From assembly GCA_000004985.1 (NCBI GenBank), contig GG738852.1: a DNA stretch of 64,000 bases; one strand, 5' to 3'. Position numbers and translations under genes: made by a program. Below the pieces are notes generated by a model that ran no database searches, was not told the origin of the DNA, and was given only the letters and a program-made list of their open reading frames with translations. Of this stretch, positions 1 to 24,777 are shown piece by piece (within the stretch, counting starts at the first letter, position 1; the number at the start of each line of letters is the position of its first letter). Origin of the DNA: Naegleria gruberi (lineage: Eukaryota).

Positions 1-3000
1 TCCTCTTGTGTTCCTTATTGTTTATCTTGGGGAAGTAATATTGTAGTGAGTGGTGCTGATAAGAGAGTTTCTTTTTATAGCATTGATGGTTCAATGTTAC
101 AAAATTTTGATTTTGCAGATCGTGAAGAGAAAGAATTTAGTTCAATTGCTTGTAATCCTTCAGGTCAATGTTGTGTTGTTGGTTCATGGAATAGATTAAG
201 AGTTTTTAATTTTAATATTCATAGAAATATGTGGGAAGAAGGTGATCATATTGAAGTTCCAAATATGTATGCTGTTACTTCTGCTTGTTGGAAACCTGAT
301 GGTTCTCGTCTTGTAATTGGTAATATGACTGGTCAAGTTGATTGGTTTGATGCTTGTATTAAGAGATATCGTTATAAGGGAGAATTCGAGTTTACTTTTG
401 TTAGTTCAAGTCAAGTTATTGTTAAGAGACTTTCAACAAATGTTAGAATTGTTTTAAAATCTTTATTTGAAGAGGAAATTTTAAAAGTTAATGTTGCTAG
501 AGATCAATATATTATTGCTAGAACACCAAGAACTTTACTTTTAGGTGATTTGGAATCTTGTAAACTTTCTGAAATTGCTTGGAATTCAGATGAAACAAAT
601 GAAAAATTCTACTTTGATAATCCTAAAGTTTGTATGGTTTACAAGGCTGGTGAATTTTCAATTATTGAATATGGTATTAATGATATTATTGGAAGTTTTA
701 GAACTGAACATGTTAGTACATTCTTGATTAGTGCAAGAATTGCTGATAAGGAAACACCAAATAATGAAATTGATTTGAGTGGAGGAAATAAGAAAGTAGC
801 TTATTTGATTGATTCTCATACAATTTGTATTCTTGATTTGGTTTCATCATTTACAATTGCAAAAATTAATCATGATTACAAGATTGATTGGCTTGAATTG
901 AATAATAGAGCAACAAAATTACTTTTCAGAGATAAGCAAAGACATCTTCATGTTTTTGATTTAAAGACACAAAAAACAACAACATTATTAACATATTGTA
1001 GTTATGTTCAATGGGTTCCAGATTCTGATGTTGTTGTTGCACAAAATAGAAGTGATTTATGTGTTTGGTATAATATTGATTCACCAGATAGAGTTACAAT
1101 TGTTCAAATTAAGGGTGAAGTTGTTGATATTATTAGATCTGATGGATGTACAGCTGTACTTGTTGATGAAGGACCAGGAACTGTTAATTATGATCTTAAT
1201 GAAGGTTTAATTAATTTTGGTAATGCAATGGAAGATAAAAAGTATGAACATGCAGCAAGTATTTTAGAAAGATTATCACTCACTCCAGAAACAGAAGCCA
1301 TGTGGAAGAAATTGAGTGAAGTTGTTATGGATGATCAAAGATATGATATTGCAGAAAGATGTTATGCTTCATTGGGTGATGTTTCAAAATCAAGATTTTT
1401 AAGAAAATTAAATCAAGAATCTAAAAGATTAAGAGAAAATGAAGAAGATGCAATGGTTGAACCATTAGATCATTGGAGAATTAGAGCTGAAATTGCAATT
1501 CTTGGAAAGGATTTCAAATCAGCTGAACAAATTTATTTGGAACAAGCCAAAGTAGATGAAGCTATCAAAATGTATGAACAATTACACAAATTTGAAGAGA
1601 GTATTTTCCTTGCTATTGATAAGGGTATTAATAATGCTCAAGAAAAGAAACAAAAATACATTGAATGGCTTATTCAATCTAAACAAGAAGATAAGGCAGC
1701 TAAAATTTATGAAAAGGAAGGACAATATATCAAATCTATTAATTTATATCTTCAAGGTGGTTTCCCAGCTAGTGCAGCCAATGTAGTTTCCAAATATAAT
1801 GTTGTATTTGATAATAGTGCAAGTGAAAAGTTATTGGATACTATTGCTGAAGCACTTTCAAAGAATGGTTTATTTGAAAAGGCAGGTGAATTCTTTGAAA
1901 AGAGAGGATTATATGATAAGGCAATTGAAGCTTATAGAAAGGGAAGATCCTATCGTTTTGCAGTTGAATTATCACGTACTTCATTCCCTGAACTTGTTGT
2001 AAAACTTGAAGAAGAATGGGGTGATTATTTAGTACAACAAAAACAAGTTGAATCTGCCATTCATCACTTTATTGAATCTAATAATTATGTTAAAGCAATT
2101 GAAGCTGCAATTAATTCAAGACAATGGACAAAGGCTGTTCAAATTCTAGAAGGAATGGATGTTCAAATTGCTAAACGTTATTATGGTAGAATTGCTAGAC
2201 ATTATGAAGATATTCAAAATTTACAACAAGCTAAAAAGTTATATCTTAAAGCTAATGAATATCGTGAAGCTATGGAAATGTTTGAAAGATATAACAAGTG
2301 GGAAGAAGTTCAATCCATTGCTGAAACTTATATGAATCAAGCAGAAATGAAACAATTTTATACAGAACTTGCAACCAAATTGGAAAAGAAGCAACGTTTC
2401 AAAGAAGCTGAAAAGTTATTTATCAAGGCAGATGAAACTGATTTGGCAATTAACATGTATGCAAAGAATCACATGTTTGATGATATGGTTAGATTAGTTT
2501 CAAAATATAATCCAATTCATTTGAAACAAGCACAATTAAAGATTGCTGAACAATTAGAATCTGAAGGACATTTAAGACAAGCAGAACATTATTATATTGA
2601 AGCATCTGATTGGAAGAATGCAGTTAACATGTATAGAAATAATGATAAATGGAATGATGCAATTAGAGTTGCTAAAGCTCATGGTGGTTTAACTGCATGG
2701 AAAAAGGTTGCACTTGAATGGGCTAAACAATATACAGGTGGTGAAGCAGGTGTCAAGTTATTAAGTAAACTTGGACTTGTAGAAGATGCTATTGATTATG
2801 CAATGGATGGTGAATTTTGGGAACTTGCATTTGAAATGGCAAGATCTTCAAGTAATAACATGACTCAAAAACTTCCACAAATTCACATGAAATATGCAAT
2901 TTCATTAGAAGAAGCTGGTAATTTGAAAGAAGCTGAAACTGAATATATTAATGCTAATAGTCCTAAAGAAGCAATTGATATGTATGTTCATCATACTGAT

Positions 3001-4815
3001 TGGGATAATGCTATGAGAGTTGCTGAAACTCATGATTCAACTTTAATTAATTTCATTATTGAATTCCAAGCTGAATTGGCATTTACTGCTAGAGAATTTG
3101 AAAAGGCTGAAAAATTATATTTGGAAGCTAGAAATCCTGAAAAATTAATTGACAAGTACAAGTCAATTCATAGATTCCAAGATGCAAAGAGAATTGCAGA
3201 TAATCATTTATCAACAGATTATCAAAGACAATTAACATCAGAATGGGCTGAATATTTAGTTGATAATCAAAAAGATCAATCATTATCCAATAATAGTAAT
3301 AATAATACTAATAATGGTGGTGGTTCAAATTCATCAAACAGTATGAGACAATCATCACGTAATTTAGAACAAGATGATTCAATGATTGATAATGAAAATG
3401 ATCCAGCAGCACCTGCTAGAATGTTTGCACAAAGTGGACAATATGGTAAAGCTGTTGATGCTTTTATTGGATTTCCATGGAAGGGTGTTGATACAGATTA
3501 TTTAGAAAATGAATATGTTTCAGCTGTTAAATTAACAATTAATCATTTACAACCAAGAGTTTCAGATGTTGTAAATATTCTTTCAAAGAGATTGATTGAA
3601 ATTAAGAAATATCAAGCAGCAGTTGAAGTTTATTGTATGGCTAAACAATTTAGAGATGCAGTTGATGTTTTTGTTAAACAAAAAATGTTTGGTGAAGCAC
3701 TTGAATTGGCAAAACAACGTTCACCTGATTTGATTGATTATATTAAGGATCAACATAAGAGAAGTTTGAAACCAGTTGAAGGACCAATTGATTTAGCAGA
3801 TCAAATTGAAAGATTAGCAGAATCAGGTGAATGGACTAAATGTTTAGAATTGTGTCAAAAACATGATAATCATGATATATTATCTAGACATACAGCATCA
3901 TTTATTAATATACTTGTTAATGAAAGACATGATTATAATCAAGCATTAACAATATTAGAAAAGTATGGAGTACCATTAGAAAAACAATTATTGAATACAT
4001 ATAAGGAATTAGTAACACGTATAGTTTGGATGTCAGTTCATCAAGAAAATGCTAATTCATCTGATTTGAAGAGATGTAGAGATATGTTAAATTCATTAAT
4101 TGAAGGATTTTCAAATTCAGGAATTGTAGTACCAATAAGTCTTGTTAAAATGAGACAAGTATGTCATATTTATCATGTTAAAGATATTTGTAAAAAAGTA
4201 ACAGAATTACAAGAATTATATACAAAGAATTGTGTTAGTTTATGTAGATATACAGATGAAATACCACCTGATTCTGTTTTTTATGAAGCAGGTAAAGCAT
4301 GTGAAAAGATGAAATGGGAAAATATGATGTTTGTATTTTATAATAGATTTTTAGATATTGGTGATGCTATTGAAGAAATTGAATTGAAAGAAGAATATCA
4401 AAATCAAGATCCACCTATTCTTATTAAGGGTACTGCTGAATTGGAAAATTCAGATTTTCAAGGAACTGATGTACCCTATAAGGTACCAATTCCAGTTTCA
4501 CAACTCATTGATGATGATTTTAAAGATGATATTACAAATGTTGTTTTACAAAAATCTATGAATGCATCATTTAATAATTCATTATCAAAATGTTCATGTC
4601 CATCATGTAAACAACAAATTTACATTGCAAATTCAAATTGTTCAAAATGTAAAACACAATTTGAAATTTGTTCTGTTACTGGTTATCCTGTATTCCCTGA
4701 TCAAAAAGTACAATGTACAAATTGTAGAAGACCTGCAAATAGAAATGATTGGAATTTATTCATTTTAAAACATAAGAGATGTCCTCATTGTGATGATTTA
4801 CAATTAACTTTATAA
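1..4815 (+). CDS. IFT172: Intraflagellar transport protein 172 (IFT-B), 5'-partial (N-terminal ~220 aa upstream of window)
   Basis: Frame 1 is open from base 1 to the TAA at 4813-4815, and the listed ORF 46..4815 is the same frame. From memory, the translation aligns colinearly with IFT172: the beta-propeller part ('SIACNPSGQCCVVGSWNRLRVFNFNIHRNMWEEG', 'TSACWKPDGSRLVIGN', 'LLLGDLESCKLSEIAW') is followed by a long TPR-like alpha-solenoid ('VVKLEEEWGDYLVQQKQVESAIHHFIE', 'YEAGKACEKMKWENMMFVFYNRFLDIGDAIEE'). The Cys-rich C-terminus is also conserved. No introns are needed. Confidence 0.9.
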   Translation, partial: SSCVPYCLSWGSNIVVSGADKRVSFYSIDGSMLQNFDFADREEKEFSSIACNPSGQCCVVGSWNRLRVFNFNIHRNMWEEGDHIEVPNMYAVTSACWKPDGSRLVIGNMTGQVDWFDACIKRYRYKGEFEFTFVSSSQVIVKRLSTNVRIVLKSLFEEEILKVNVARDQYIIARTPRTLLLGDLESCKLSEIAWNSDETNEKFYFDNPKVCMVYKAGEFSIIEYGINDIIGSFRTEHVSTFLISARIADKETPNNEIDLSGGNKKVAYLIDSHTICILDLVSSFTIAKINHDYKIDWLELNNRATKLLFRDKQRHLHVFDLKTQKTTTLLTYCSYVQWVPDSDVVVAQNRSDLCVWYNIDSPDRVTIVQIKGEVVDIIRSDGCTAVLVDEGPGTVNYDLNEGLINFGNAMEDKKYEHAASILERLSLTPETEAMWKKLSEVVMDDQRYDIAERCYASLGDVSKSRFLRKLNQESKRLRENEEDAMVEPLDHWRIRAEIAILGKDFKSAEQIYLEQAKVDEAIKMYEQLHKFEESIFLAIDKGINNAQEKKQKYIEWLIQSKQEDKAAKIYEKEGQYIKSINLYLQGGFPASAANVVSKYNVVFDNSASEKLLDTIAEALSKNGLFEKAGEFFEKRGLYDKAIEAYRKGRSYRFAVELSRTSFPELVVKLEEEWGDYLVQQKQVESAIHHFIESNNYVKAIEAAINSRQWTKAVQILEGMDVQIAKRYYGRIARHYEDIQNLQQAKKLYLKANEYREAMEMFERYNKWEEVQSIAETYMNQAEMKQFYTELATKLEKKQRFKEAEKLFIKADETDLAINMYAKNHMFDDMVRLVSKYNPIHLKQAQLKIAEQLESEGHLRQAEHYYIEASDWKNAVNMYRNNDKWNDAIRVAKAHGGLTAWKKVALEWAKQYTGGEAGVKLLSKLGLVEDAIDYAMDGEFWELAFEMARSSSNNMTQKLPQIHMKYAISLEEAGNLKEAETEYINANSPKEAIDMYVHHTDWDNAMRVAETHDSTLINFIIEFQAELAFTAREFEKAEKLYLEARNPEKLIDKYKSIHRFQDAKRIADNHLSTDYQRQLTSEWAEYLVDNQKDQSLSNNSNNNTNNGGGSNSSNSMRQSSRNLEQDDSMIDNENDPAAPARMFAQSGQYGKAVDAFIGFPWKGVDTDYLENEYVSAVKLTINHLQPRVSDVVNILSKRLIEIKKYQAAVEVYCMAKQFRDAVDVFVKQKMFGEALELAKQRSPDLIDYIKDQHKRSLKPVEGPIDLADQIERLAESGEWTKCLELCQKHDNHDILSRHTASFINILVNERHDYNQALTILEKYGVPLEKQLLNTYKELVTRIVWMSVHQENANSSDLKRCRDMLNSLIEGFSNSGIVVPISLVKMRQVCHIYHVKDICKKVTELQELYTKNCVSLCRYTDEIPPDSVFYEAGKACEKMKWENMMFVFYNRFLDIGDAIEEIELKEEYQNQDPPILIKGTAELENSDFQGTDVPYKVPIPVSQLIDDDFKDDITNVVLQKSMNASFNNSLSKCSCPSCKQQIYIANSNCSKCKTQFEICSVTGYPVFPDQKVQCTNCRRPANRNDWNLFILKHKRCPHCDDLQLTL

Positions 4816-4903: not shown

Positions 4904-6089
4904 TTACTTATTGGATGATTGTAATTTACTCAAAGTAACACCCAAACCAATACCACTTGCCATCATACTTGCAATGGTTAATAAACCAGCAAAACTTAAA
5001 TTAGCCATTTGAGATAAACCATGTCCAGAAGTACAACCATTGGCACATCTTGCACCAAAAAGTAATAAGAAACCAGATGCAATAGCCATTAATTTTTCAT
5101 TCAATGTCAATTTCTTTGGTTGTACTCTTGTATTTCCCATAATTGAAGAAATATAAGAACCAGTAATAATACTAATATCAGAAATTAATTGCCAAACATA
5201 TTTTGGACCAGCAGATAAAGCATACTTATCAAAATAAGATTGATTTACAGGTAAATATCTTGTTAAGAATGAAGCAGCAGTAACAAAAGCAGATGAAGTA
5301 CCAAGATATGTCTTGACAAATAAATTAACTGGAATTTGAAGTGAACCCAATGCAATACCACTTAAAATTGGATTCCATTGTTTCATTTTCATTAAATTTC
5401 TATCATTCTTATTATTACTACTTTGATATTTTGGAGTTGGAAATAATTTTTCTAATAATAAAGCAATACCAATTAAACAACTTCCAAATGGTAAAGCAAT
5501 ACTCCACATTGGTTGATTTAATAAACCATTAATAGTATTAAATGATCCTGATACTTCTTTAGATTGTAAAATTCCTTGAATTGATGGAATATTAATAATT
5601 GATCCATAACTAATAGCTCCTAATAATCCACCTAATAATGTATATGGTGATGATGTTACTCCTTCTCCAATTTGTGCCAATACTATTATTATTATTATAT
5701 TAAATTAAATATAAATTAAATATTATTAAATTAAATATTAAATATATTAAATATATTAAATATAAATAAAACATACCAGTACCAGGACAAGCACCACCCA
5801 AAGTTAAACCAGTACCCATAATTAAACCACCAATAATATTACCTCTCCAATTAATATTAAAAGGAGCTAAAGTAGCTAAATTAAATAAATTTAATAAACC
5901 TAATGAAATGGTTGAAGTACCACTGGCTGATAAAAATGTTTTCATCATTGTCCAATCTTTTAAATACATTTGATTTTTAATATTTTCAGGTGCTGACATT
6001 CTACTCTTTTGTAATATAATACCAAATGCTAATCCTTGTGGAATACCAACACTTGTTGCAATACTATTAGTACACGATGATGATGACAT
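4904..6089 (-). CDS. YeeE/YedE-family (Sulf_transp, thiosulfate/sulfur-transporter-like) membrane protein; 2 exons (6089..5777, 5682..4904), intron 5776..5683
   Basis: Two minus-strand ORFs (5700..6110 and 4904..5680) are joined by a 94-nt intron. The donor is GTATGT straight after '...GGACPGT' and the acceptor is ...aataatag. The phase-1 junction gives '...LTLGGACPGTVLAQIGEGV...'. The protein (~363 aa) has the duplicated YeeE/YedE signature of two hydrophobic halves, each with a Gly-Gly-Cys motif ('LTLGGACPGTG' and 'GARCANGCTSGHGL'). The E. coli TsuA/YeeE counterparts are 'GGCATGT' and 'GGCSIGNG'. The true ATG is at 6089 (MSSSSCTNS...). The ORF-track start at 6110 and the 'MAQIGEG' start at 5680 (a TTG) are not real starts. 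Confidence 0.7.
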
Positions 6090-8766
6090 GATGTAAATGG
6101 TGATGATCAAGATAAAGATGATAAAGTATTTTTTTTTTTAATTAAAAATATCTCTAAAATGGAGTTGGGTTTTATCTGATATTTTCAATGATGATGCCTC
6201 CGCTATCAGTAGGATAACAATTACACGCTAATAAAAACAGTATCGCCGAAAATTTTATTGTAATTACACCTTTGTTTACAAGTCCACTAGTTTGATGAGA
6301 AATAAGGGAAATAGTTCCGACAATCATTAATGATTGAAAACTAACACTTTTCAATGAAACAAAATAAGTTGAGTTCATTCTGGTTGTGTGTTAGCATATT
6401 GTTCCTCATGTGTATTAACAGGTATAGCGGACACTCAAGTTCTGTTAAATTAATGAATTGAATGTTGTTCCTTTATTGAGCTTGAATACATTACAATTAG
6501 GTCAATGAGAAATAATGATGATGTATCGAACAATCTAATGATTGATGGTTTAAATATATAACAACAATGTATAATAATGATGAATAATAACATCTTACAA
6601 CAACAATAATAACATATTTGATAATATGATGGTAATGATGATCATTTGGTGCTTTTTGGTATTGTTTGGACAATGATCATCCTATTGATGCAATCTACCG
6701 ATCCGGTATTGATGGTTATCAACTTTCTTGTTGTTTTGCTTAACAACAATAAAAACCATGTATCCATCAATCAACAAATCTACTCTGCCATGATGATGAT
6801 GGTAACATTGATCCTAACAAGAATAATTCCTCTATGACTGCTGATTCCTACAACAACAACAAAAATCTTTTTGTGTTCTAATGTGATTTTAGATTTGTCT
6901 CTGAATAATTCTCTAGAAATTGAAAAGGCCAACATTAGATCTGTAAATAATAGCATTGTGAGTTCTGTTACCAACTCACAAGTTTTGTCATCTCCAATAC
7001 ATCACCCCCAAACAAGATTACCCAACATTCATCAAAAGAAAGATATTGTCTTTGACAAACATAATAATACCCTTTCACTAGCTCTTGACAATCATCAAAG
7101 GACGATTAACGGTGCAATTTTAAACACAACACTTGAACGAGAACATTACCATCACATGCCTCAAGGTAAACCCAATACTACACCCACAATATCATGTACA
7201 GCTCTCAGTGGTTTCATATTTTCAAAAGTGCATGGTGTTCAAAACATTTCTCCTCATTCCTATTCAAAACGATACAATCCAACAACTCATACACCAACAG
7301 CCAAAAAGCCCTTCTTCCATGGAAATACTAAGAAACCATACAATGGTCTTGTGGAGATTTCCAGTTTTGCCACAAACACAGATACACAAGATGAGCAAAC
7401 ATTGGAAAATCCTTTTCAGAAAATCCTTTTCATAAAATCCTGGAGATGATTGTGAATTTTGTAAACCTATAAATAACATTTAAATATTATTATTACAATG
7501 ATATGGTTTTTTTTTGGAATTTTGTTATTGTTGTTGTAAAATCATATGATGAAATACAATTTTGGGCCTGTGAAACAGTGTAATAGGAAAATATGAAATA
7601 AATGTAATTACATTGTTACAAATTAACTCCAATAAAACAAAGTTCCAGAACAGATTTTATTCAGTGTTATCTCAAATTTATGCAACGAGTATTAAAAAGC
7701 TTGAAATATGAACATACACTAACCAATAGGTTCGTATTTATCTTAATGTTTATCGTACATAACAGAACACCGATACAATTTCTTACCACCAAATGTCAAA
7801 GTTACACTATTCCGTCATTAGTACAGGTTTGGGTATAATGCTCAAAGATTGTATGTTATTTCGTGTATTATAAGCCAAGATATCTAAGATTGTTGATACC
7901 GTTTATCTACAAACACAGCTCCAAAGTTAATGATAAACTTTACTAGTTAATAGCATTCATTTGACATATTCATTACGAAACCGTTGTTAAAAGTCAGCAT
8001 CTGATGTATCTGTAGTAAGTTGATCTGTACAACCACATGTATAAATTTAACATAATCGTGTACTAGTATAATGATTATCAATATCCAAGTGGTTGCTTGT
8101 TACGATTCTATGATTATCAGTAATATAATATTTACTTAGGTATTGCTTGGGTTAGCTCTTACTTTTCTCCAACCAACTGAATCAGACGAACAAGAAATTA
8201 AAGTTTTGACTCCCAGATTCGACTTCAGAACCTGGTTAGCCATTGTAAAGGATGATGATTCTAACAATCACATTGATTTCACAACTGTGTCCAGTAACTT
8301 GTGGCTTTTTTCTCAAGATTCCTTTAAATTTTTTACCTTTTAATTACACACCAACTTTTTATTGTTGCTCTTATTTGAGTCACCCAGAAAGAAGGTTCAA
8401 TTTCCATCATTCCTAACACTTTTAATTTATGGCTTTAAATGTTAGAAAAGAATATTTCTTGACTTGAAATTTTTCACTTACCTAGCTACGGAAAACAAGC
8501 TGTTTCTAACTGTTGCAATTAACAAATTCATCAAGAAAAATCATGTCTTAATCAAAAAACAGGCAAAGGATATTATATATTCCATTATCCAAATTGATGC
8601 ATCTCTCTAATATTATTGAATGGAATGAAAGCCAACACAAGGAATTCCACAAAAGAATAGAAAGTCTCTACCATGTTAAAAATATAAATTTATATAAAAA
8701 TTATACAACTTGATTTCTACTAACTCATTCCTCCTGTTTGTTGGTTGTTTGTTGTTTGTTAATCAT

Positions 8767-10682
8767 CTAATATTGAGTAACATTTAATTTCAATTGAGTA
8801 GATTGTGGTACAATAGTAGCCTTTCTAACATTCTTTGTTGCATTCATTAATTTAACATATTCAATGTATAAATCACCCTTATCACCATCTAATAATTGCA
8901 TAGTTTCCTTAATTTGATTCAATTCACTATCATATTTAGCCTTTTTCAATAAAGAAATTGAATCATTTTCAGCCTTTTCTCTTTCAATTTTAGCTTGACC
9001 TTCAATTCTTGATTTTTCAATCTTTTCTTTTTGCATATTTGAATTTTTGATTTGAATTAAATTCTTTTTCAATTTTGCAAATTCAATTTGAGATTGAATT
9101 TCTTCCTTTTCAGCTAAATTCTTTGCATTTTCTTGTAATTTGTTACACATAATATTCATTGATGATTTAATGGATGAATCTAATAATTGTGCAATTTCCT
9201 TATCAACTGGTCTTAATTCTTTAACATCAACTGCATAAACAAAGAAATTAAATTCTCTAAATAATCTACCATGTACTTGAACTGATGTTTCATCATTAAA
9301 TTCTACTTTGTAATCTTTAAATAAATTATTTCTTAATATATCAGCTGCTCCTTTATGGAATGATTCAAAATAATGTCCACTTGCTAATTCTCTAATTCTA
9401 CTACGAAGTGATTGACATGAATATCCAATAAAATCACCTGAAAATACTTTATCATATTCTTCATCAGATACTTTTTTATCACTCATTAAAAATTGCCATT
9501 TATAGGTCAATTCCATTTGTAATACTGCATTATCTTTAGTTCTAACTAGAAATCCATCTGTCATAAAGTCCTATATTTTATATTAAATTAAATATATTTA
9601 TATTAAATTAAAAATTAAATAATAAATAAATAATAATAAAAATATTAAAAAATTAAATAATAAATAAATATTAAAAATAAAATTAAAATAACATACAGGT
9701 CCCTTATTAACAATAGCAATAGTACATGAATTTTCAACTTTTGGATTACCACCTGAAATTGATAAAGTTCTTAAACCTTCATGTGAACCTAAAATCATTG
9801 ATTTTGGACCTTCATGAAAAGTTTCAATTCCCTTTTTATGATCAATAATACAAACAATTTCATTCTTTTGTATTTGAATATGATATGCATTAAATGATGA
9901 TTGATTTGGTAATTCTAATGCATCATATTCTCTATCTGTTAATTTTTTATAATATAATTCTTCATTACATTCTAAAAAGTATGAAGTTGGTCCTTTAACT
10001 GTTTTTAATTCACTTGTTTCTACATTTCTAATATAAATTGCTTCATTTTCACCTACATTAATAGCTGATTGAATATCACCAATTCTTTCTTCATTAGTAT
10101 TAGCATAGTAAATGGTTGGTCCAATGACACGTCTCATTTCACCTGCTTTGAATAATTTCTTATCACCAGTACTATTACCAGTACTAGTATTATTACTAGT
10201 ATTATTAATATAATGATCTTTTAATGCTTGTAAAAAGATATATTCATTCTTATTTAAAATATCAGCATCAAGTACACGTGAATTTAATAATGATTCACCT
10301 GGATAGAGTGAAAATGTTGATGGACCTTGACGAATTTCTTTCATACCAAATTGTGTTTGTTTACTTTCTTGATTATATGGATTTAATATAACCGCATATT
10401 GTCTTTCTTTAACAACTATTATTATTAATATTATTAAAATTATAAAAATATTATTAATAGTAAAAATAAAAAATAATTAATAAATAAATAAAAAATAATA
10501 AACTTACTAATTTTAGTTTGAATACCAAGTGATTTATCAATAGATTTATTAGCTTGAAGATAAAATCTAGTAGGACCTTCAACTAATTCAATACTACCAG
10601 TTTCATTGTTAATAACATGAACATATTGATCAGCATATAATACAACAGGTGAATCTTGACTCATTGTTTTTTTAGATGACAT
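8767..10682 (-). CDS. Major vault protein-like (short form, ~568 aa); 3 exons (10682..10508, 10415..9687, 9570..8767)
   Basis: Exon 1 ends '...GIQTKI' + A, followed by gtaagt. Exon 2 follows the acceptor aataatag (10417/10416) and reads 'IVKERQYAVILNPYNQESKQTQFGMKEIRQGPSTFSLYPGESLL...'. It ends '...IVNKGP' with a GTATGT donor at 9686. Exon 3 follows tatag and begins 'DFMTDGFLVRTKDNAVLQMELTYKWQF...'. The MVP repeat-domain pattern is present ('YADQYVHVINNETGSIELVEGPTRFYLQ', 'ERIGDIQSAINVGENEAIYIRNVETSELKTVKGPTSYFL'). The shoulder/SPFH-like and cap-helix regions ('TKDNAVLQMELTYKWQF', a long EK-rich coiled coil) resemble vertebrate MVP from memory. The protein is far shorter than canonical MVP (~850-900 aa). 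Confidence 0.75.
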
Positions 10683-13519: not shown

Positions 13520-16500
13520 TTATTCATCATCTTCTTCATCAGAATCAGAATCACCATAACTTGCACCACCTCTAACAGATGAAGTAGAAGCAGAGTTATT
13601 TAATCTTCTCATTAATTGTTGGAATTTTCTTCTCTCAGAATCCAAATCAGATTTCAATTTAGTATTTTCAGATTCCAAATCATCAACTTGATCTCTAGTG
13701 GATTGTAATTGAGATTCAATTCTACTCTTTTCTTGAGCAATTAATAATTGATTTGAAGATTCAGTTTCCAATCTCAAAACAGACATTTTCAATTCACGTT
13801 CCAATCTATCAGCCTTTTGTTCAGCCAAAGTTCTATAACGTTCAGAGTCAGATAATGAACGTTGAGCATCACGTAATTCAGATTCTAATGAATTTGAAGA
13901 TTTGGAGAATTTCTTCTTATCATTCTTCAACTTGTTATATAAATCTTGTAAATCTTGTAATTCTTGTTCATATTGAGCACGAACACGACGTGATTCTTCA
14001 TCCTTCTTTTGATTGGCTAATTCTAATTGAACTTTAAGATTTTGAACATCACGTTTCCATCTATTTGCTTCTTCTTCATTGTAAATTCTTTCAGATCTTT
14101 CCTTCTTTAATTCAGATTGAAGTTCACTTAAAATTTCATTATGTTGTTGTTTAACACTTGATAATTCATCTTGTAAATCTTCAGCCTTTTCTGCCAAATC
14201 TCTCAAATCTTCAATTTCAGTTTCCAATGATAATTTAACAGATTCAATCTTTTTCTTTGATTTAACTTCTTGATTATACTTGTCTCTGAAATCATTCAAT
14301 TCAAATTCAGTTAATTTTCTCTTTTGTTCAGTGTCAGCAAGTTGAATAACTTGATCTTCTAATTGAGCTTTCAATTTAATTAATTCAGAATCATATTCAC
14401 GTCTCAATCTTGAAATTTCAGCAGATGAAACTGTTGATGATGAAGAACCATCACCACCTTCTGAAGCATCCTTCTTTAATTGTTTCAATTGATTCTTTAA
14501 ATCCTTATTATCTGATTGAAGTTTTCTAATTTCTTGATTTAATTTTTCATCTGAATCATCCATTGAACGTTGTAATTGATCTAAACGTTGTTTCATTGTT
14601 GAAACTTCACGTTCCTTATCTTGTTTTGTACGATCTAAATCTTGTTGTGCTTTAGCAGCATCTGATTGTAATTGTTTGTTTTCAGATTCAATTTGTGAAA
14701 TGGATTGATCTTTTTGATCTGCTTTTGATTTCCATTCAAGTACATCACGTTCTAATTTATCAACTTGTGATTCAAATTCATCCTTTTCAGATTCTAAATC
14801 TTTGTATTTTCTATCTCTTTCTCTTAATTCTGATTTTAATTTCAAAGTTTCAGAATCATTACTTGATAAATTTGTTCTAACATTTTCCAAATCAGATCTC
14901 AATTGTGAAATTTCACGTAAAAGTCTTTGATTTTCATCTTTTGATAAATTTAATTGATTCTCACGATCAGCAATAACTTGTTGTGTTTGTTTGTGTTTTT
15001 GATTTTCATCTTTGAAACGTTGTTCAGATTCTTGTAATTGTTCTAATTGTTTCTTTAAATCATCTTTCATCTTTTTAATTTGTTTTTGAGCTTCTTCTGA
15101 AATGTTTGAATTATCTGAAAGTTGTGATCTTAATTGTTCTAATTGATCTCTTAAATTCTTTAATTCTTGTTCACGTTGAGCCAGTGTTGATTCTAAAACT
15201 TCAGATTTTGATTTATATTCAGTTTCAGATCTTCTTAAAAATTCTAAATCTGATCTCAATTTTTGAGTTTGATTCTTTTCCTGATCTAAATCATATTGTT
15301 GATCACGTACTTGTTTTTCTAATTTAGATTTTAATAAATCTAATTGTGTTAAATCTGATTCTAATTGTGTTAAACGATCACGATTTTGATTCAATTCTGA
15401 AGATTGTGTTGATGATTTTGATTTTTCTCTTGATAATTCTTCTTTTGAATTATTCAATTCCAATTCAACATCCCTGATACGATTCATTAATTCACGTTTT
15501 CTATTTTCAGATTCTTGTAATTGTTGTTTGGTATTATCTTGATCTGTATTTGATGATTTAACTTCAGATTCTAATCTTTTAACTTTAAGTTCTAAATCTG
15601 ATTTATCATGTTCTAATTGTGTTTTATCCTTCTTTAAATTTCTAACATCTCTATCAGATGAATTTAATTTAGATTCAGTTTCTTCCATTCTCTTTCTAGT
15701 ATCTTCTAATTTTTGAGAGAGATTGGAAATTTCATCTTGTGTACGTTGTTTTTCACGTTGTAATTCTGATTGTAATTTGTTCAATTCATTTTCAGATTTT
15801 AATCTCAAATCAGATAAATCACGTTCATAAGCTTGATTTTCTCTCTTTAATCTTTCATTTAAATCTTCTAATTCTGATATTCTCAATTTTAATGAGGCAA
15901 TTTCACGTTTCAATTCATCAATTTCATTGGATAAATCTTTAGATTGAGATTCAATACGTTCCTTATCAAAACGTTCAGTATCTAATTGTTGTGCTAATTC
16001 ACGTGATTTCTTTTCTAAATCATTTCTCTTTCTCTTTTCTTCTTCTAATTCACCAAATAATTGTTCAGATTGTTGATCATTGGTTAATTTTTGTTTTCTC
16101 AATTGATCAAATTCACGTGTCTTTTTATCTAATTCTTGTTGGAATGTATCTAATTGTTTCTTCATTGAATTTGATTGTAATTCTAATTCATTCTTATCAA
16201 TTTCATTCTTTCTCAAATCTTGTTCCATATCTTGAACTTTACGTTTATAATCAATAATTTCATTATCACGTTCTCTTAATTTACGTTCCTTATCAATCAT
16301 TTCTTGTCTTGTTTGATCTAGAGAATAATCAGATGAATTCAAAGTATTCTTTGTAATATTCAATTCAGTTTTAACATCTTCTAATTCATTTAATGCTCTT
16401 TCTAATTCTTCTTTCATTTCTTGTACTGATTTACCACGTTGTAATACTTCTACATCTTTATCAGATAATTGTCTTTTAGCTTGATCTAATTGTGTCTTTA

Positions 16501-19500
16501 ATTGATTCATTTCAAAATCCTTATTTTGTAAATCTCTTCTCAAATTATTCATTGCACTTTCACCATCTTTTAATGATCCATTCAAATTTTCCATTTCAGA
16601 TTCTCTATTTTGAATTTTATCTTTCATATCTCTCATCATTTGTTGTAATTGTTCAATTTCTGATTCTCTAATGGCCATTTCAGATCTAATTTGTTCAACA
16701 TTTCTATTCAAATTATCCTTTTCTTGTTCTGTAATTTTGTTATTTTCAATTTGATTGGCAATTTCTTGTTTCAATTTTTCAATTTCATCTTTCATTTGTT
16801 GGAGAATCTTATCAGAACGATCAGCTTCAACTAATGGTCTAACTTTAACAAATAATTGATACCAATCCCAATCTTTCATACTCAAATAGGCACGGAAATT
16901 ACGTTGTAATAATTTGATATAAACAATTCTACCCATCAATTTCTTATATTGTTTACGTGCTGAATGACCTTGACAAGCTGCTTGTGCTAATGCAATAACT
17001 TTTTCAATTTCTGCCTCTCTCAATTCTTCTAATTGAGCTTCAACACCTGATTTGAGGAAAATCTTTGTTTTACCTAATTTATATTTAGAATCATCTAGTG
17101 AGGTAATTTTAGAAATGATGGCATGACACTTTTCACGTTCCAATTTCATTCCATCCAATGATTTTTTATCTTTGGCCAATAATTCATATCTCTTAACAAA
17201 TTCATTGAATTTAATTCTACCTGGATAACCCTTTCTAGAAATTCTAATACCTTCCAATACACCATTACATTTCAATTGTTCTAAAACACTTGGTGCTTGA
17301 ATAATACCTGGTTTTTGTAAATTATTTGGTTTGATACAACGAATGAAATGAGGTTCAGTTGAACTCAATAATTGAATTAAATCACTCAATTGTTTCTTAT
17401 ACTTGTTACCAACAGTTTGGAAACGAACACCTGCACCTGAAACACCACGCTTATTCTTATCAGAATCTGATGAACCACCTGAACCACCAGATGATTGTTG
17501 ATCAACAAAGAGTTTCTTAATGAATGGAAGTTGTGATTTTTGCATAGCCATTTTACAATCATCATTCAATGGATCAACATTCTTACTGTACCAATCACGA
17601 ACATTATATTTAACTTCACCTGCATAGTGAGTTACAATGAATGATTTTTGATCAAATTTATCCTTTCTCAATTTTTCAGATTTTTGATTCTTTGACAACA
17701 AGTCACGTACGAATGATTCTTCATCTTGATTTTGAACAACACATTTTTGATGTAAAATATCTAAAACACCTTGTGGTTTTTCAATTAAATCAATAGTTGG
17801 TTGTAAATCTAAACCAAAATCAATGAAATTCCAAGCAATATCTTCTCTCAAATATTCTTCTTGTTCCTTCTTGAACATGTGATGATTGAAAAATTGTTGT
17901 AATTTTTCATTTGTAAAATTGATACACATTTGTTCAAAACTGTTCAATTCAAAGATTTCAAAACCAGCAATATCTAAAACACCAATAAAATTCTTAATTT
18001 CACATTTGGCATTCATTGATTGATTAATCTTTTGAACAATCCAATCAAACATTCTCAAATAAGTTGACATGACTAGTGCATTTCTATTAAAATTAGCTTT
18101 TCTAGAATCAACTGCCATTTCAATAATTTCACCTGGTAAAATAATACGTGGTTTACAGAAACCTTTTGTTAATTGATCGGATGGAACTGATAAAATATCA
18201 CATGCAAAATCTAATGGTGATCCTGATTTTACATTTGAAACAATTTGTGCATGTTCTTCTTCATTATCTTTAAATTGAACATTACCAATATGTAAAATGA
18301 AGGAAACAATTCTAAAAATCATATCAATTTCAGAATCTGACATTTTCATAACTTTCATTGATTGTAAAGTTAATTTCAAATCATTTGTATCATCAACACC
18401 TGGTACAACATAACAATTTGATTGATTAATATATTCAAAATCAGATGGTTCTGTCAAGTATAATTCCTTCTTCTTATCAGAATCTAATGAAAATATTTGA
18501 TAGAAAATGTGAAAACTTCTCTCATTCAATGCTTGTCTAATAACTCTTGTTGTTTCTAACAAGTAGTGTTGAATTCTACAACCACCAATATATCCCTGTT
18601 TATCAAATTGAATTTCAATAAATTTACCAAAACGTGAAGAATTATCATTTCTCAATGTTTTAGCATTACCAAATGATTCTAATAATGGATTACACATGAT
18701 CAATTGTTGTTCAATTTGACCACCACTACCACCTTTACCAGCAACATGTGTCAAGTATTGAATAACACGTTTAGTATTAACAGTTTTACCTGCACCAGAT
18801 TCACCTGTAATGAGCATACTTTGATTCTCACCATTCTGTAACATTTGTCTATAGGCAACATCTGAAACTGTATAAATGTGTGGTTCAACATCTTCACGTC
18901 TCTTACCATCATGTCTCTTTATAACCTCATCGGTATAAATTGGTAAATTCTTATACGGATTCACTGCTACCAAAAATAGACCACTATAAGTATAGATTTG
19001 ATCTCTCTCATATCTGTACTTTAAATTATAAAATACAGATGGTTCATTTAACAAGGATAATTGTGCCATATCTGGAATACCATCCTGTTTTTTATCATGA
19101 TTGGATATGATTGGTTATGATTGGATGATTGGATGATTGGATATTGTGTAAGTATGATTGATTGGTTATGATTGGATGATTGGATATTGTAAAGTATTAC
19201 AACAATAACAATAATAATAAAAATATATATAAATATAAATATATATATAAATAAAAAACATACCAATTTTTGTGGATTCATAGGATAAACCATATCAGGT
19301 TTACATTTATCAATTCTACCATCATCTAATTTGAATTGAACTTCACTTGCAGTTTCTTCAATAATTTCACCAACAACAAAACCACCTTCACCATCAGGTA
19401 CCCACTTGAATTTGTTTGAAGTTGCTTGATCTGATTTTTGTTGTTCTAATAAACGTTGAAAGAAGGATGATTTATTATCACCTCCTGATTTCTTGGCTCT

Positions 19501-20475: not shown

Positions 20476-23400
20476 ATGCCAAAACAAACAAAAATCACGG
20501 ATACATTTTTCAAGCCTAAGGCTTCATCATCATCAAATGACAATGTGTCAAATACTTTCGGATTATTATTACCAATAGATGATGTAGTGGATGAAAATAA
20601 TTTACTAGATACATTTATAAATTCAGCTATTAATGGAGGTGTAAAGAGAAATTGGAATATTCAACAATTAAAAAAGACTGTAGGAGATATAAATTCAGAA
20701 TTTAAACCTCAAATAGAAAAAAGAACAGCTTTTTGGGAAAAGGAATTAGAAAAATTAAATAATATTAAAATACCAATAAGGAAATCAAGTCAATCAGATA
20801 TTGAATCAGGTGATAAATCACAAAAAACATTATTGGATTACTTTACAAAAAATGAAAAATCATCTCAAAATGAATCAAATATTACAACAATAGTTTTAGA
20901 ATCACAAGATGTTCCTCAAGATTTAGTAATTCCAATGTTAGATCCACGTACAAGTGATTTAAATATTACAACTACTAATAATGGTAATAATTCTATTAAT
21001 AATACTTCAAATAATAATAATACTACTATTGCATTAATAATAATACTTCAAATAATAATAATACTACTACTACTACTACTACTTCTATTCAAATAACACC
21101 ACCAAATGAAATTGTAACAAGTAATATTATTCAACCTTCTAATAATAATAATACTACTACTAGTATAGTAGATACAAATAATAATAATAATAATAATAAT
21201 ACAATAATCAATAATAATACTAGTAATAATACAACTATTATTGATAATAATACTACTGATGATAATAATGATATATTTTTGGATGAAGAAGAAATTATTA
21301 AACCAATTACACCATCTGAAACTGCTACCAACAATAATAATATTATGGATAGTGAAATTATAACTCTAACTTCCAATGATTTAGATGATTTATTAATGGA
21401 AGATATTATTCAAGTACCTTCCAATACTTTAAATACTACTGAAATAACACAAAATGAAACTGTTAAATTATCCTCTCCTTCACTTTCCTCTATTAATAAT
21501 AATAATACCACTACTAATACTATCACCAATACTCCACCCATTAATCCTACAACAACTTCTGCAACTTCTGCTACTACTACAGCCACTATACCATCATCAT
21601 CATCCAATAATTCAACTACTGCTTCTACCACTGAAATTAAATTAATTAAATCACCAAATTTAGAAGGTAAAAAACCAAAACAAGAAATAACTAAAATAGA
21701 AAGTGAAATAACAACAGGTGTTGAAGAAATATTAACAACACCTAAAAAAACAAGAAAGACAACAAGTTCTAAAAAGTCAACTGCCAGTAAGAAAACATCT
21801 AAAAAAGGGTCAAAGAAGAGAAAAGTTCAAGATGATGATGCCATGTTAGATGACGATGATGATGAATATAAACCATCTTTAACAGATGAAGAAGATTTAA
21901 TACTTGATGAAGAAATTGAAGATGATGAAGATGAAACTATTGGAAAATCTGGAAAGAGAAAAAGACCAGCAGCTAAAAAAGTTACAGATGAACAAGATGA
22001 AGAAATTCTTAATCAAATACTTGATGAAGAGGATGAACCTCTTACTATTAAGACCACAACTACTAATACTACTACCAATAATAATACTTCTATTATGAAT
22101 TCATCAGCTATTGCAAGTGAAACCAAAACAATAACAAAACAACCATCAACTAAAACATCCATTTCAGATACCACTTCTAACAAGTCAACAAGTAAAACAT
22201 CTTCCACTGCTTCAAATTCCAAGTCAACAATTAAAGAAGAAGATGAAGAAGTTGCTGCTACTGCTGCTGTTGAAGATGAAGAAGAAATTATTGAAACACC
22301 AATCAAGACAAGATCAGCAAGAAAAAAGACAAGACAATCAGGTAAATCAAGCCTTGATTCTGAAAATGAAACATCAGCTAACAAATCATCAACTAAATCA
22401 ACAACAGGATCAACAACACCAACAAGTGTTGGTAATAATGATTTATTTGAAGAAATGTCAAATTCTATTGTTCAATCACCATCAATGGAAGATGAACCTC
22501 AAACACCTGCAAATAGTAAAAAGAAGAAGAGAACAACAACAACAGTTAGAAGAAGAAAAAAGAAATCAGAAGATGGAACAGTTTCATCATTTTCTGATGG
22601 TATTGATGGTGGTGATTCATTCCTTAGTCATGAAGATGAACTCTATGTTTCTACAAATAGTAATACTGATACAAGTGCACCTTCATATCAATTTTGGGAT
22701 TATGTAAATAGTTTCTTTCCTGTTATTAAGAAGGATAGATTACAATTATTAGAAATTGAACATTCTGATGATGATGATGCTTTTAACATTTCAAAAAGAG
22801 GAAAACATTACACTGAAAAATGGGAAGATGAAAATTGTAAATTATTTCCACATTTATTTAAGAAGGAAGTTCCTTCTCCAATGGAAAATGAATCCATCAG
22901 CATTTCTGCTACTCATAACACTACTCATAATACTTTTAATAACTTATCAACAACAAACAATATTTCATTTTCCAATTCAATTAATGTTGATAAGAATTCA
23001 AAACACTTTTTTTCACAACACAATTTAACACAAAGACTTTTATCAAGTTTAATTGAGGAGAGAGATTTAGTTTCAGTAGAAACATTTTTCAATGATGAAA
23101 ATTCATCATCCTCCTCCTCAGCAACAACATCAGGTCTAGTCTTTGATAGTGATGAAGAATCTGATTCATCAAGTGCTAGAAAAACTACACGTTCAACTAG
23201 GAAGAGTATTGCTGGAAATTCAAATAATATTGCTCAATATTCAAATGTATTTGCATCACCATCATCTTTGAATAATGGTAATTCTAATAATCAATCAACT
23301 AATGCTGCCAATTCAAATATTAATTCAATGTTAGATAATTTTTCCAATTCATTTTCAATTCTTGAACAACAACAGCAACATGAAATTGGTGAACATTTAA

Positions 23401-23864
23401 AACAAAAACTTCCAACACTTTCAAAAACTCACAATCAAAAATCAAATCAAGTTTTACAAGCATCAAATCAATTTAAAGATTTTGAACAACAATTATTTGA
23501 ACCATCATTTGATTATTCATCTCAATATTTAAATATATTTGAAGAGAAATTAATGAGTGAAATTAAAAGTATTGGATTATTACCACCTCCTCCATCACAA
23601 CAAACAACAAGTAATAATAATAATAACATGTTAACACCATTGTGGTTTGATGAAGAATCGAGAGAGGATGATGAAATTTGTGCTGAAATTAGAACTCTTC
23701 AAAACAAACTACGACAACAAATGGAAAAGACCAACACCTATAGAATGAAAATATTAACAAGTGTTAAAGAGAAATTACATGAAGAAACTGAAATTGGAAA
23801 GAAAATTTTATTATTTTCAGAATTGGAAAAGAAATTATTTCCTCCAACTCAAAAGAAACGTTAA
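20476..23864 (+). CDS. Large low-complexity (Asn/Ser/Thr-rich, acidic and Lys-rich) nuclear-like protein. The reading frame is disrupted near 21021-21097 (ORFs 20476..21096 and 21279..23864 are one gene)
   Basis: The frame-1 ORF (MPKQTKITDTFFKPK...) and the frame-3 ORF overlap between 21021 and 21097. That region is an (AAT)n/(ACT)n tract. Frame 3 is open from 21021 ('YYYCINNTSNNNTTTTTTTSIQITPPNEIVTSN...'), so a +/-1 indel or an unrecognised micro-intron joins the two. The N-terminus has a PIP-box-like motif, 'QTKITDTFF'. The downstream part has a K/S-rich basic patch ('KKTRKTTSSKKSTASKKTSKKGSKKRKVQ'), followed by acidic runs ('DDDDDEYKPSLTDEEDLILDEEIEDDEDE'). The product is unknown. Confidence 0.5.
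21000..21270. repeat. (AAT)n/(ACT)n trinucleotide microsatellite tract inside the coding sequence
   Basis: Long runs of 'aataataataat' and 'actactactact'. This is the site of the frame disruption in the 20476-23864 gene. Confidence 0.7.
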
Positions 23865-23978
23865 TAAATTATTTTACAATTCTGATATTTTTTACAATCT
23901 TTCTATTAAATTAAGTTGAAAGTTTTCTGGATTTAAATATATTTACAAATTAATACAACCATGTTGATGATAATGAAA

Positions 23979-24551: not shown

Positions 24552-24777
24552 TTTTTTAATATAATTATTTCTTCTTTAAATGAGATTGCTATTAATAGTT
24601 CTCAACTATGGATTCTTTCTAGTAGAATAGGTCAACTAATGCTAAAGAATCTAAAATTGATTGAAAGAAATCAATACCATTTGTAATTCTTTACAATTAA
24701 TTTAAATAGTATTTAATATTAACTATTATTAGAATAGATAACCGTTGGAGAGCAGGAAGATAATAAATTAAAAAAAA

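Follow-up and report, generated by a model that had tools for sequence, protein, structure and literature searches.

The gene at positions 4904-6089 of the window (the 64,000-nucleotide stretch of contig GG738852.1 that was analysed) is a resident, already annotated, intron-containing nuclear gene of Naegleria gruberi. Its product, a nine-helix, 363-amino-acid membrane protein of the YeeE/YedE family (Pfam Sulf_transp, COG2391), falls within a broad eukaryotic clade of single-chain proteins. A sequence-only reading had presented the gene as being of bacterial type in a eukaryotic setting, but its best matches form a well-populated eukaryotic clade; the data bear out the alternative offered in that same reading, a eukaryotic lineage of the family that has seldom been noticed. 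What was flagged as a 'bacterial gene in a eukaryote' is a normal resident gene and is not to be counted as a transfer or as part of a mobile block. The overall explanation that we favour, with good confidence, is a resident YeeE/YedE protein of this eukaryotic clade that serves as a putative facilitator for reduced sulfur.

Gene model, fold and conserved cysteines

Sequence and translation place the gene on the minus strand with its start ATG at 6089, and two exons flank a spliceosomal intron (Table 1). Read without splicing, the frame meets a stop inside the intron and is open only after intron removal. The spliced coding sequence of 1092 nt is in frame, and its product is 100% identical over 363 residues to the deposited 'predicted protein [Naegleria gruberi]'. 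The second exon completes the N-half and goes on to encode the central helix, linker and C-half. The intron, whose GTATGT...YAG pattern had been recognized beforehand, has the ends GTATGT...ATAG, and its removal restores both the frame and a conserved motif: the splice junction re-forms GGACPGTVLAQIGEG, and with it the CPGT[VM]LAQ motif. This junction motif is unbroken in the genomic DNA of N. fowleri and Willaertia, and its Q108 is invariant across the clade. Of the two motifs originally named, GCTSGHG stands as read, but GGACPGTG comes from reading through into the intron, and splicing turns it into GGACPGTV. Elsewhere in the window, four sites that come after long open frames have the same GTATGTTTT with an AT-rich structure.

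Table 1. Coordinates of gene parts and key residues (window positions)
Feature	Position	Strand	Details
Exon 1	5777..6089	-	codons 1-104 and first base of codon 105; TM1-TM3, first Cys motif
Spliceosomal intron	5683..5776	-	94 nt, phase 1, GTATGTTTT...AATAG, 3% GC
Exon 2	4904..5682	-	rest of codon 105 to codon 363; TAA stop at 4904-4906
First half-site motif GGACPGT, residues 98-104	5778..5798	-	C101 = StYeeE C91 (6LEO alignment)
Second half-site motif NGCTSGHG, residues 319-326	5018..5041	-	C321 = StYeeE C293
Codon for S32	5994..5996	-	third TsuA Cys position (StYeeE C22, YeeD-facing); ungapped 6LEO alignment

When the spliced protein was searched against Pfam, it matched nearly the full PF04143 Sulf_transp profile (positions 1-307 of 310) with 214.8 bits, where the cutoff is 27 (E 2.8e-63). 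A match far beyond chance, it bears out the earlier family assignment. An AlphaFold (AF2) model of the protein (pLDDT 93.8, pTM 0.92) was compared with the PDB using Foldseek, and the only entries retrieved were those of YeeE/TsuA (6LEO, 6LEP, 8J4C and 8K1R; E 1e-10, TM 0.71-0.80 over the full length). The predicted structure shows the YeeE fold with its nine TM helices and hourglass architecture. In each of two homologous halves, a Gly-rich motif puts one invariant cysteine where a short broken helix begins, as the duplicated cysteine-motif architecture had suggested. Specifically, in the model GGAC101PGT sits between helices 81-98 and 102-111, NGC321TSGHG sits between helices 298-317 and 322-329, and the central helix spans residues 163-184. 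The short N-terminus (14 residues before TM1, without Arg or Lys) contains no hint of a mitochondrial presequence.

C101 and C321 are the only conserved cysteines of the clade, one in each half with no third. The C101 column is Cys in 35 of 36 named eukaryotes, in 24/24 bacterial relatives and in 6/6 outgroup sequences, and the C321 column is Cys in all 36 named eukaryotes. At the S32 position, none of the eukaryotic sequences scored has Cys; the residue is Y, F, S, A, N, H or L instead. Among the positions that contact the partner protein YeeD in the bacterial transporter, R98 corresponds to Q108 and R28 to K38; E101 is kept as E111 in Naegleria but is Ala or Thr in most clade members.

The eukaryotic clade and its split bacterial relatives

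The closest matches to the Naegleria protein are those of N. fowleri (65% identity) and Willaertia (49%). Further matches come from dictyostelids, Balamuthia, Andalucia, euglenids, foraminifera, Plasmodiophora, a labyrinthulid, chytrids and many Ascomycota, such that Heterolobosea, jakobids, euglenids, Amoebozoa, Rhizaria, a stramenopile and Fungi are all represented. All 12 of the organism-named representatives that we looked up are eukaryotes, and the contig of P0144 has neighbouring genes of eukaryote type. This delineates a sizeable eukaryotic branch of YeeE/YedE proteins, with more than 100 clusters (132 at 50% identity with E <= 1e-30). Its signature is a single chain with the N-half followed by the C-half, the motifs CPGT[VM]LAQ and GGCTSGHG, two cysteines, and an invariant Gln that replaces the YeeD-contact Arg, all encoded by a nuclear gene of eukaryotic structure. 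The grouping, a eukaryotic single-chain two-Cys Sulf_transp clade, is one that we define here. Our literature search yielded no experimental study of this branch, no functional or localisation data for any eukaryotic member, and nothing specific on Naegleria sulfide metabolism or on PF04143/DUF395 in eukaryotes; published work gives eukaryotic YeeE-like proteins no more than a brief mention (PMC11073785).

Neighbour-joining trees with 200 bootstraps recovered several subclades that agree with organismal lineages. N. gruberi, N. fowleri and P0003 grouped together in 200/200 replicates, the same group with Willaertia and P0005 in 187/200 (94%), the dictyostelids in 194/200, and the Fungi, comprising Ascomycota and chytrids, in 158/200. 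The gene has thus been inherited at least since the common ancestor of Naegleria and Willaertia. For deeper nodes such trees of a short membrane protein have little power, and the eukaryotic backbone is without resolution: eukaryotes were monophyletic in 78/200 replicates and Discoba in 1/200, and the other Discoba (Percolomonas, Andalucia and Ploeotia) did not group with Naegleria (25/200 and 1/200). Orthologues have different introns or none. In Aspergillus, Neurospora and Cavenderia the gene exceeds its coding sequence in length and is not directly translatable, so it evidently holds introns there too; introns are therefore seen or inferred in these three and in N. gruberi and N. fowleri.

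The closest prokaryotic relatives are pairs of half-size proteobacterial genes, for example in Ferrovibrio, Xanthobacter, Elioraea and Propionivibrio (loci L003-L082). A search for related prokaryotic loci gave 201 matches, and the best 80 of the 201 are mostly from Alphaproteobacteria, a share that should not be over-read since the sample was drawn with DNA patterns from a 12-sequence alignment and is biased to this subclade. The split pairs share with the Naegleria protein the ...EKSRVFEP..., GACPGTVLAQ and GGCTSGHG motifs, the two-Cys pattern and the invariant Gln; they differ in being two genes, and they are without experimental characterisation. Their identity to the Naegleria protein is 35-39% in the trimmed alignment, as near to it as most eukaryotes outside the Heterolobosea, and reaches 46% in the strongest tblastn segments. 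In each pair a gene for the C-half (~171 aa, Pfam positions 172-310) comes first, followed after 10-35 nt by a gene for the N-half with the central helix (~190-208 aa, positions 1-157). This order is opposite to that of the eukaryotic chain in 78/78 loci, and among these loci there is no fused bacterial member of the subclade. Seven bacterial loci that appeared to have the N-then-C order were artefacts in which the ORFs were over-extended in another frame. Because the C-half gene comes first, simple read-through fusion would give a domain order opposite to that of the eukaryotic protein.

The surroundings of the split pairs link them to sulfur metabolism weakly. The commonest immediate neighbour is a Pyr_redox_2 gene of the SQR or CoADR-rhodanese type, at 11 of 140 flanking ORFs, and such Pfam counts are lower bounds because many of the largest ORFs in high-GC genomes are spurious antisense frames. 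Genes for ArsR, CsoR-like and SulP proteins are also present, but so are those for LepA, transaldolase and photolyase, and no strongly conserved neighbour emerged from the 140 flanking ORFs.

These relationships have implications for the origin of the clade. The gene may have been acquired from proteobacteria long ago, at the base of the eukaryotic clade. A single early acquisition would fit both the near-equal distance of the eukaryotic lineages to a tight proteobacterial clade and the rearranged fusion that they share. Alternatively, the patchy eukaryotic distribution could reflect several independent transfers, either from proteobacteria to eukaryotes or between eukaryotes, rather than one ancient gene followed by many losses. 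Mean identity between eukaryotes (33.7%) is no greater than that between bacteria and eukaryotes (34.9%), and the low support for eukaryote and Discoba monophyly and the lack of backbone resolution are in keeping with such a history, although neighbour-joining on a short membrane protein is a weak guide at that depth. However, each transfer from a C-half-first operon would have required an identical rearranging fusion to an N-to-C chain, which none of the 78 bacterial loci displays, and large lineage-congruent groups, such as chytrids with Ascomycota, argue for inheritance. We consider repeated transfer unlikely, if worth weighing.

Characterised transporters and a proposed function

Among the characterised members of the family are the TsuA/YeeE thiosulfate transporters, including those of Spirochaeta thermophila (StYeeE, PDB 6LEO/8K1R) and E. 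coli. StYeeE has three conserved pathway cysteines (C22, C91 and C293), which form part of a Cys-lined relay, and YeeE alone transports in liposomes (PMC11073785). The Naegleria protein shares with these transporters the Pfam family and fold, a single chain of ~330-360 aa with nine TM helices, and two of the three pathway cysteines within the same motifs (C91/C101 and C293/C321). Despite these similarities, it is just 20-22% identical to them, the equivalent of the cytoplasm-facing C22 is Ser and that of R98 is Gln, and the gene is eukaryotic, contains an intron, and adjoins IFT172 and MVP rather than a YeeD/TsuB gene. It scores 81 bits against the TsuA model NF052577 (cutoff 400) and 47.6 bits against NF041049 (cutoff 645), the cutoffs being of the equivalog/exception kind. 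The protein is not a TsuA equivalog, and the original label 'TsuA-like' was an overstatement.

Nonetheless, a genuine TsuA/YeeE thiosulfate importer for sulfur assimilation, working with a TusA-like YeeD/TsuB partner from another genomic locus, has to be considered. In NCBIfam and the PDB the protein matches TsuA models and structures best, and the retained cysteines correspond to C91 and C293, which are reported to be indispensable in StYeeE (PMC11582611). Against this stand the scores far under both cutoffs, the absence of the YeeD-facing cysteine from all eukaryotic sequences scored, the invariant Gln at a YeeD-contact position and the lack of an adjoining TusA-like gene. Moreover, in SoxT1B a C-to-S change at any of the three cysteines abolishes function (PMC11582611). 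Such an importer is decidedly unlikely.

A two-Cys pattern is found in a second type of transporter. PmpA/PmpB and YedE1/YedE2 (from Serratia, and from Cupriavidus pinatubonensis and Sinorhizobium meliloti) are a zero-valent sulfur importer (PMC10812762, PMC11582611), and in the split two-Cys YedE1E2 both cysteines are essential for this import (PMC10812762). PmpB is the N-half and PmpA the C-half, and the genes are linked to ArsR-type regulators, PDO and SQR (PMC10812762, PMC11582611). The Naegleria protein likewise has two cysteines, one per half. Unlike it, these systems consist of two polypeptides of ~130-140 aa with 4+4 TM helices and no central helix (PMC11582611, PMC10812762), whereas the Naegleria protein is one 363-aa chain with a central helix. 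A tblastn search of PLSDB plasmids, which should include pSymA, with the Naegleria protein and a bacterial N-half gave no match. On this plasmid search, YedE1E2 is probably not a close relative of the Naegleria protein or of its split bacterial counterparts. The YedE/FdhT selenium transporters belong to the same superfamily, and the Naegleria N-half (residues 12-128) weakly matches the C-terminal repeat of their model. Membership in that group was rejected, as scores are well under the curated cutoffs (32.7 bits versus 200 for TIGR04112; 20.6 versus 350 for NF033796).

By analogy with these transporters, the resident eukaryotic-clade protein is likely a passive channel for small reduced-sulfur species. 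We predict that the two cysteines are stacked mid-membrane and line a narrow central pathway, as in the solved YeeE structures. In such an energy-independent facilitator, a small reduced-sulfur species would cross the membrane, either plasma or mitochondrial, through transient contacts with both cysteines; candidates are thiosulfate or sulfane sulfur such as hydropolysulfide or persulfide. On the far side, the sulfur would probably be passed to a soluble thiol or a sulfurtransferase, and not to a YeeD-type partner at the position of the missing cysteine. Both the substrate and the direction of transport are what we infer purely from this analogy. Should the clade transport thiosulfate or sulfane sulfur in fungi and amoebae, among them relatives of the pathogenic N. 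fowleri and Balamuthia, it would close a gap in what is understood of eukaryotic sulfide/persulfide metabolism.

A more far-reaching reading, which we regard as quite improbable, is that the clade was inherited anciently, possibly from the alphaproteobacterial ancestor of mitochondria, and may supply a membrane step in the sulfide/persulfide handling of soil and sediment protists and fungi. Such a step might, for example, be the passage of thiosulfate, sulfite or sulfane sulfur through the plasma membrane or the inner membrane of mitochondria.

The locus and its surroundings

The gene is not a recent bacterial import. A transfer from a bacterium to the Naegleria lineage, perhaps including the adjacent block at 6090-8766, with the intron and the codon usage gained later, might be entertained because the family was first described, and has mostly been studied, in prokaryotes. 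The proteobacterial relatives are moreover as similar as non-heterolobosean eukaryotes, and the synteny comparison that had been suggested revealed none with the N. fowleri or Willaertia locus. However, this scenario is hardly credible given the N. fowleri and Willaertia orthologues in a well-supported clade, nearest bacterial relatives that are split and in the opposite order, and an N-to-C architecture common to all other eukaryotic members. Codon usage is host-like, as had been stated: the score per codon is 0.30-0.36 for this gene, comparable to IFT172 (0.32-0.43) and MVP (0.27-0.52). The GC content of the coding sequence (29.6%) is close to that of the window (30.4%), and the intron, in the style of the others in the window, is a further host-like feature.

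The adjacent region also tells against the suggestion that the whole 4.9-8.8 kb block is foreign or mobile. The gap at 6090-8766 had been called the only large ORF-poor gap; it is indeed the window's largest such stretch, but it is not the sole one, as others of 0.8-1.0 kb with similar GC exist. Its dinucleotide signature is ordinary (z ~0.5), and we detected in it no repeats or tandem repeats, no tRNA and no codon-usage coding signal. The Rfam search gave one sub-threshold mir-7 match only (E 0.6), and Pfam and homology searches with a 192-aa ORF within the gap were negative. The gap is without sign of foreign or mobile origin.

The flanking genes are as first described. One is IFT172-like, with TPR_IF140-IFT172 and TPR_IFT80_172 domains, and the other is that for the major vault protein, with MVP_shoulder and Vault_3/4 domains. 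That the gene stems from misassembly or from bacterial DNA contaminating the N. gruberi assembly, for which only the family's prokaryotic reputation speaks, is a practically negligible possibility given the continuous sequence between these two genes (both with eukaryote-only Pfam domains), the spliceosomal-type intron, a GC content of 30% like the rest of the window, and orthologues in two further heterolobosean assemblies. No adjacent sulfur-metabolism gene was found in Naegleria, N. fowleri, Willaertia, Aspergillus or Cavenderia, and no sulfur cluster surrounds the Aspergillus, Neurospora and Cavenderia genes. The only hint of one is a Lactamase_B gene 4.5 kb from the Neurospora gene.

Gene model and host-like character

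A sequence-only reading had placed a YeeE/YedE gene with a spliceosomal intron between IFT172 and a vault-protein gene, and our analysis bears this out: on its two sides lie genes for an IFT172-type protein and for the major vault protein (MVP). In translation, the unspliced frame hits a stop within the intron and is open only when that segment is removed; the resulting 1092-nt coding sequence yields a 363-aa protein that matches a deposited 'predicted protein [Naegleria gruberi]' from end to end at 100% identity. This identity means that the window is N. gruberi nuclear DNA and that the hand-built gene model is the published one; the feature is real and was correctly delimited. The spliced protein matches Pfam PF04143 (Sulf_transp) across 307 of 310 profile positions at 214.8 bits (E 2.8e-63; cutoff 27 bits). 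The first Cys motif, read earlier as GGACPGTG, stands as far as GGACPGT, but its final G is unspliced read-through; the mature motif is GGACPGTV, and its continuation VLAQIGEG aligns gap-free to the N. fowleri and Willaertia proteins.

Features of the Sulf_transp locus and the adjoining gap
Feature	Position	Strand	Details
Sulf_transp gene, two exons	4904-6089	minus	ATG at 6089; TAA stop at 4906-4904
Exon 1	6089-5777	minus	begins at ATG
Intron	5776-5683	minus	94 nt; starts GTATGTTTT; AATAG at end; 3% GC
Exon 2	5682-4904	minus	ends with TAA at 4906-4904
ORF-poor stretch	6090-8766		2.7 kb; between Sulf_transp and MVP genes; reality confirmed
Single long ORF in gap	6871-7449		192 aa

The gene resembles its host, as had been proposed. 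Its coding sequence has 29.6% GC versus 30.4% for the window, and its codon-usage log-odds score, trained on long ORFs of the window, is 0.30-0.36 per codon, in the company of IFT172 (0.32-0.43) and MVP (0.27-0.52). Four further window sites have the GTATGTTTT start followed by sequence of 2-19% GC, each directly after a long open frame. The N. fowleri orthologue (L001 10001-11141; 65% identity) has one 58-nt intron (GTATGT...CAG) at codon ~316, just ahead of the second Cys motif, unlike the N. gruberi intron after codon 104 (104/105), and the Willaertia magna orthologue (L002 10001-11071; 49% identity) has none. This differing content indicates intron gain or loss inside one gene over a short evolutionary span. 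Comparison of both loci found no conserved synteny around the gene in N. fowleri or W. magna. The MVP gene is interrupted too: a short AT-rich segment (9565-9600) splits minus-strand ORFs 8767-9564 and 9598-10344, and the N-terminal read-through of the upstream ORF (FNLIFLLLF...) resembles intron sequence.

Eukaryotic relatives and split prokaryotic counterparts

Beyond Naegleria and Willaertia, the best matches are eukaryotic: four dictyostelids, Plasmodiophora, Percolomonas, a chytrid and dozens of Ascomycota. Searched exhaustively with HMMER, 1.84 billion representatives yielded 1998 matches with E <= 1e-3, of which 132 reached E <= 1e-30. We looked up 30 of the latter; 12 were named to organism, all 12 eukaryotes (Andalucia, Ploeotia, Elphidium, Nonionella/Bolivina, Balamuthia, Phalansterium, Clydonella, Pellita, Dictyostelium purpureum, Phlyctochytrium, Gaertneriomyces and Hondaea), and the contig of one further match carries eukaryote-type neighbours. 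In Aspergillus, Neurospora and Cavenderia the gene exceeds its coding sequence in length and gives no direct translation, so introns are evidently present. Neighbour-joining trees recover lineage-level clades and do not resolve the backbone. With 68 sequences and 200 bootstraps, N. gruberi, N. fowleri and an environmental relative group in 200, the same group with Willaertia and the protein P0005 in 187, dictyostelids in 194, and Ascomycota with chytrids in 158; with 199 sequences, foraminifera group in 100 of 100. These eukaryotic best hits and lineage-level clades are the result that the earlier reading itself had set as counting against horizontal acquisition. This is a normal, vertically inherited Naegleria gene from a little-studied eukaryotic branch of an already known family of transporters; YeeE-like proteins in some eukaryotes are already on record (PMC11073785), and the literature searched yielded no study of any eukaryotic member.

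Three homologues depart from the usual architecture. In Heterostelium P0010 (483 aa), Sulf_transp is preceded by GNAT acetyltransferase domains; Phlyctochytrium P0125 (689 aa) is matched in four stretches and Elphidium P0123 (593 aa) in three. Such proteins may be genuine fusions or tandem copies, or else products of gene models that were merged.

In a scan covering each GTDB species by a single genome, 201 prokaryotic relatives were confirmed, a sample biased by the search patterns. The best 80 of the 201 are mostly Alphaproteobacteria (e.g. Ferrovibrio, Xanthobacter, Elioraea, Roseomonas, Magnetospirillum), the rest being a few beta-/gammaproteobacteria, one Desulfovibrionaceae and one Verrucomicrobiae. 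All 78 complete loci (among L003-L082; e.g. L015 3010-3519 and 3534-4106) have two adjacent genes 10-35 nt apart, first a C-half (~171 aa, Pfam positions 172-310) and then an N-half (~190-208 aa, positions 1-157, central helix included). In contrast, the eukaryotic proteins are single chains in the permuted, N-then-C order, so that plain fusion by read-through of such an operon does not account for them. Concatenated bacterial halves are 34-39.5% identical to the Naegleria protein, at least as high as most non-heterolobosean eukaryotes (median 32%); mean identity is 33.7% among eukaryotes, 34.9% between bacteria and eukaryotes and 61% among bacteria, and eukaryotes were monophyletic in 78 and bacteria in 131 of the 200 bootstraps of the 68-sequence tree. 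Given these identities and monophyly counts, the eukaryotic clade may have an old proteobacterial, perhaps mitochondrial, origin. Repeated transfer possibly underlies the eukaryotic distribution, but the same rearranged fusion would have been needed every time. A recent bacterial insertion is rejected on the host-like GC, codon usage and intron, the heterolobosean orthologues and the eukaryotic best matches.

Fold, cysteines and a putative sulfur route

An AlphaFold2 model from 59 homologues is very confident (pLDDT 93.8, pTM 0.92), and its only significant PDB matches are Spirochaeta thermophila YeeE/TsuA (6LEO, 6LEP, 8J4C, 8K1R; E ~1e-10, TM 0.71-0.80, full length). It has nine long helices and two broken helices, with C101 (GGACPGT) and C321 (NGCTSGHG) at the broken-helix N-termini. 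TsuA is described as having three cysteines in line, C293, C91 and C22, the innermost facing the TusA-like partner YeeD (PMC11073785). C91 and C293 are conserved as C101 and C321, whereas C22 is replaced by Ser32 and the YeeD-contact Arg98 by an invariant Gln. None of the eukaryotic sequences scored has Cys in the C22 column, where Tyr, Phe, Ser and Ala are the most frequent residues; in the bacterial split relatives it is mostly Phe. With the NCBIfam TsuA models the protein reaches 81 and 47.6 bits, where the cutoffs are 400 and 645, and with the YedE selenium models it also stays below the cutoffs; it thus belongs to the superfamily and shares the fold, and is neither a TsuA nor a YedE/FdhT equivalog. 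It has the same two-cysteine pattern as the split PmpAB/YedE1E2, reported zero-valent sulfur importers in which both cysteines are essential (PMC10812762); PmpB corresponds to the N-half and PmpA to the C-half (PMC11582611). These are 4+4-helix proteins, whereas our bacterial split pairs are 5+4, the N-half gene including the central helix; tblastn from Naegleria/bacterial clade queries against a plasmid collection did not reach PmpAB/YedE1E2.

What is established is the fold, a pair of invariant cysteines where helices break, and the lack of YeeD-docking features. By analogy with the solved YeeE, the two cysteines would line a central mid-membrane pathway. The protein may be a passive facilitator for small reduced-sulfur species, thiosulfate or sulfane sulfur, with the substrate handed along both cysteines and then presumably taken over by a thiol or sulfurtransferase in solution. 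The N-terminus comprises 14 residues and lacks presequence character.

Bacterial gene context weakly suggests a sulfur link. The genes most often found right beside the split pairs are of the Pyr_redox_2 type (SQR-like, or CoADR fused to rhodanese), at 11 of 140 flanking ORFs, with ArsR, CsoR-like and SulP genes occasional beside unrelated housekeeping genes. In two betaproteobacteria-type loci (L007 1311-2972, L015 1296-2960) the gene immediately upstream of the pair encodes a CoA-disulfide-reductase-like protein of 555 aa whose C-terminal domain is a rhodanese, and in L003 an ArsR-family regulator adjoins the pair divergently; both hint at persulfide or sulfane-sulfur metabolism. Among the eukaryotic loci examined, only that of Neurospora tetrasperma (L085) has a possibly sulfur-related neighbour, a 308-aa Lactamase_B-fold gene (2405-3515) 4.5 kb from the Sulf_transp gene, whose product may be an enzyme of the persulfide-dioxygenase or glyoxalase-II type.

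The ORF-poor stretch and other regions of the window

The gap beside the gene, suspected earlier of foreign or mobile origin, gives no sign of either. Its GC (0.31) is close to that of coding sequence and of the window's other ORF-poor stretches (0.21-0.36), and its dinucleotide signature is ordinary (delta* 0.097; window mean 0.079, SD 0.036). No part of it recurs elsewhere in the window, no Rfam family, tRNA or notable tandem repeat was found in it, and no frame has a positive codon score; its one long ORF lacks a Pfam domain, and 5.8 billion proteins include no homologue of it. In composition the gap is not foreign, nor is it demonstrably of foreign origin.

The window's strongest dinucleotide-signature outlier is 13651-16900 (z 4.1-4.5, AT skew ~ -0.3), within a 1864-codon minus-strand ORF (13523-19114); it is probably coding sequence with a compositional bias or repeats. 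Long degenerate AAT/ACT-rich coding repeats, of Asn/Thr-rich low complexity, occupy 20957-25791 in plus-strand ORFs 21021-23861 and 24772-25971.
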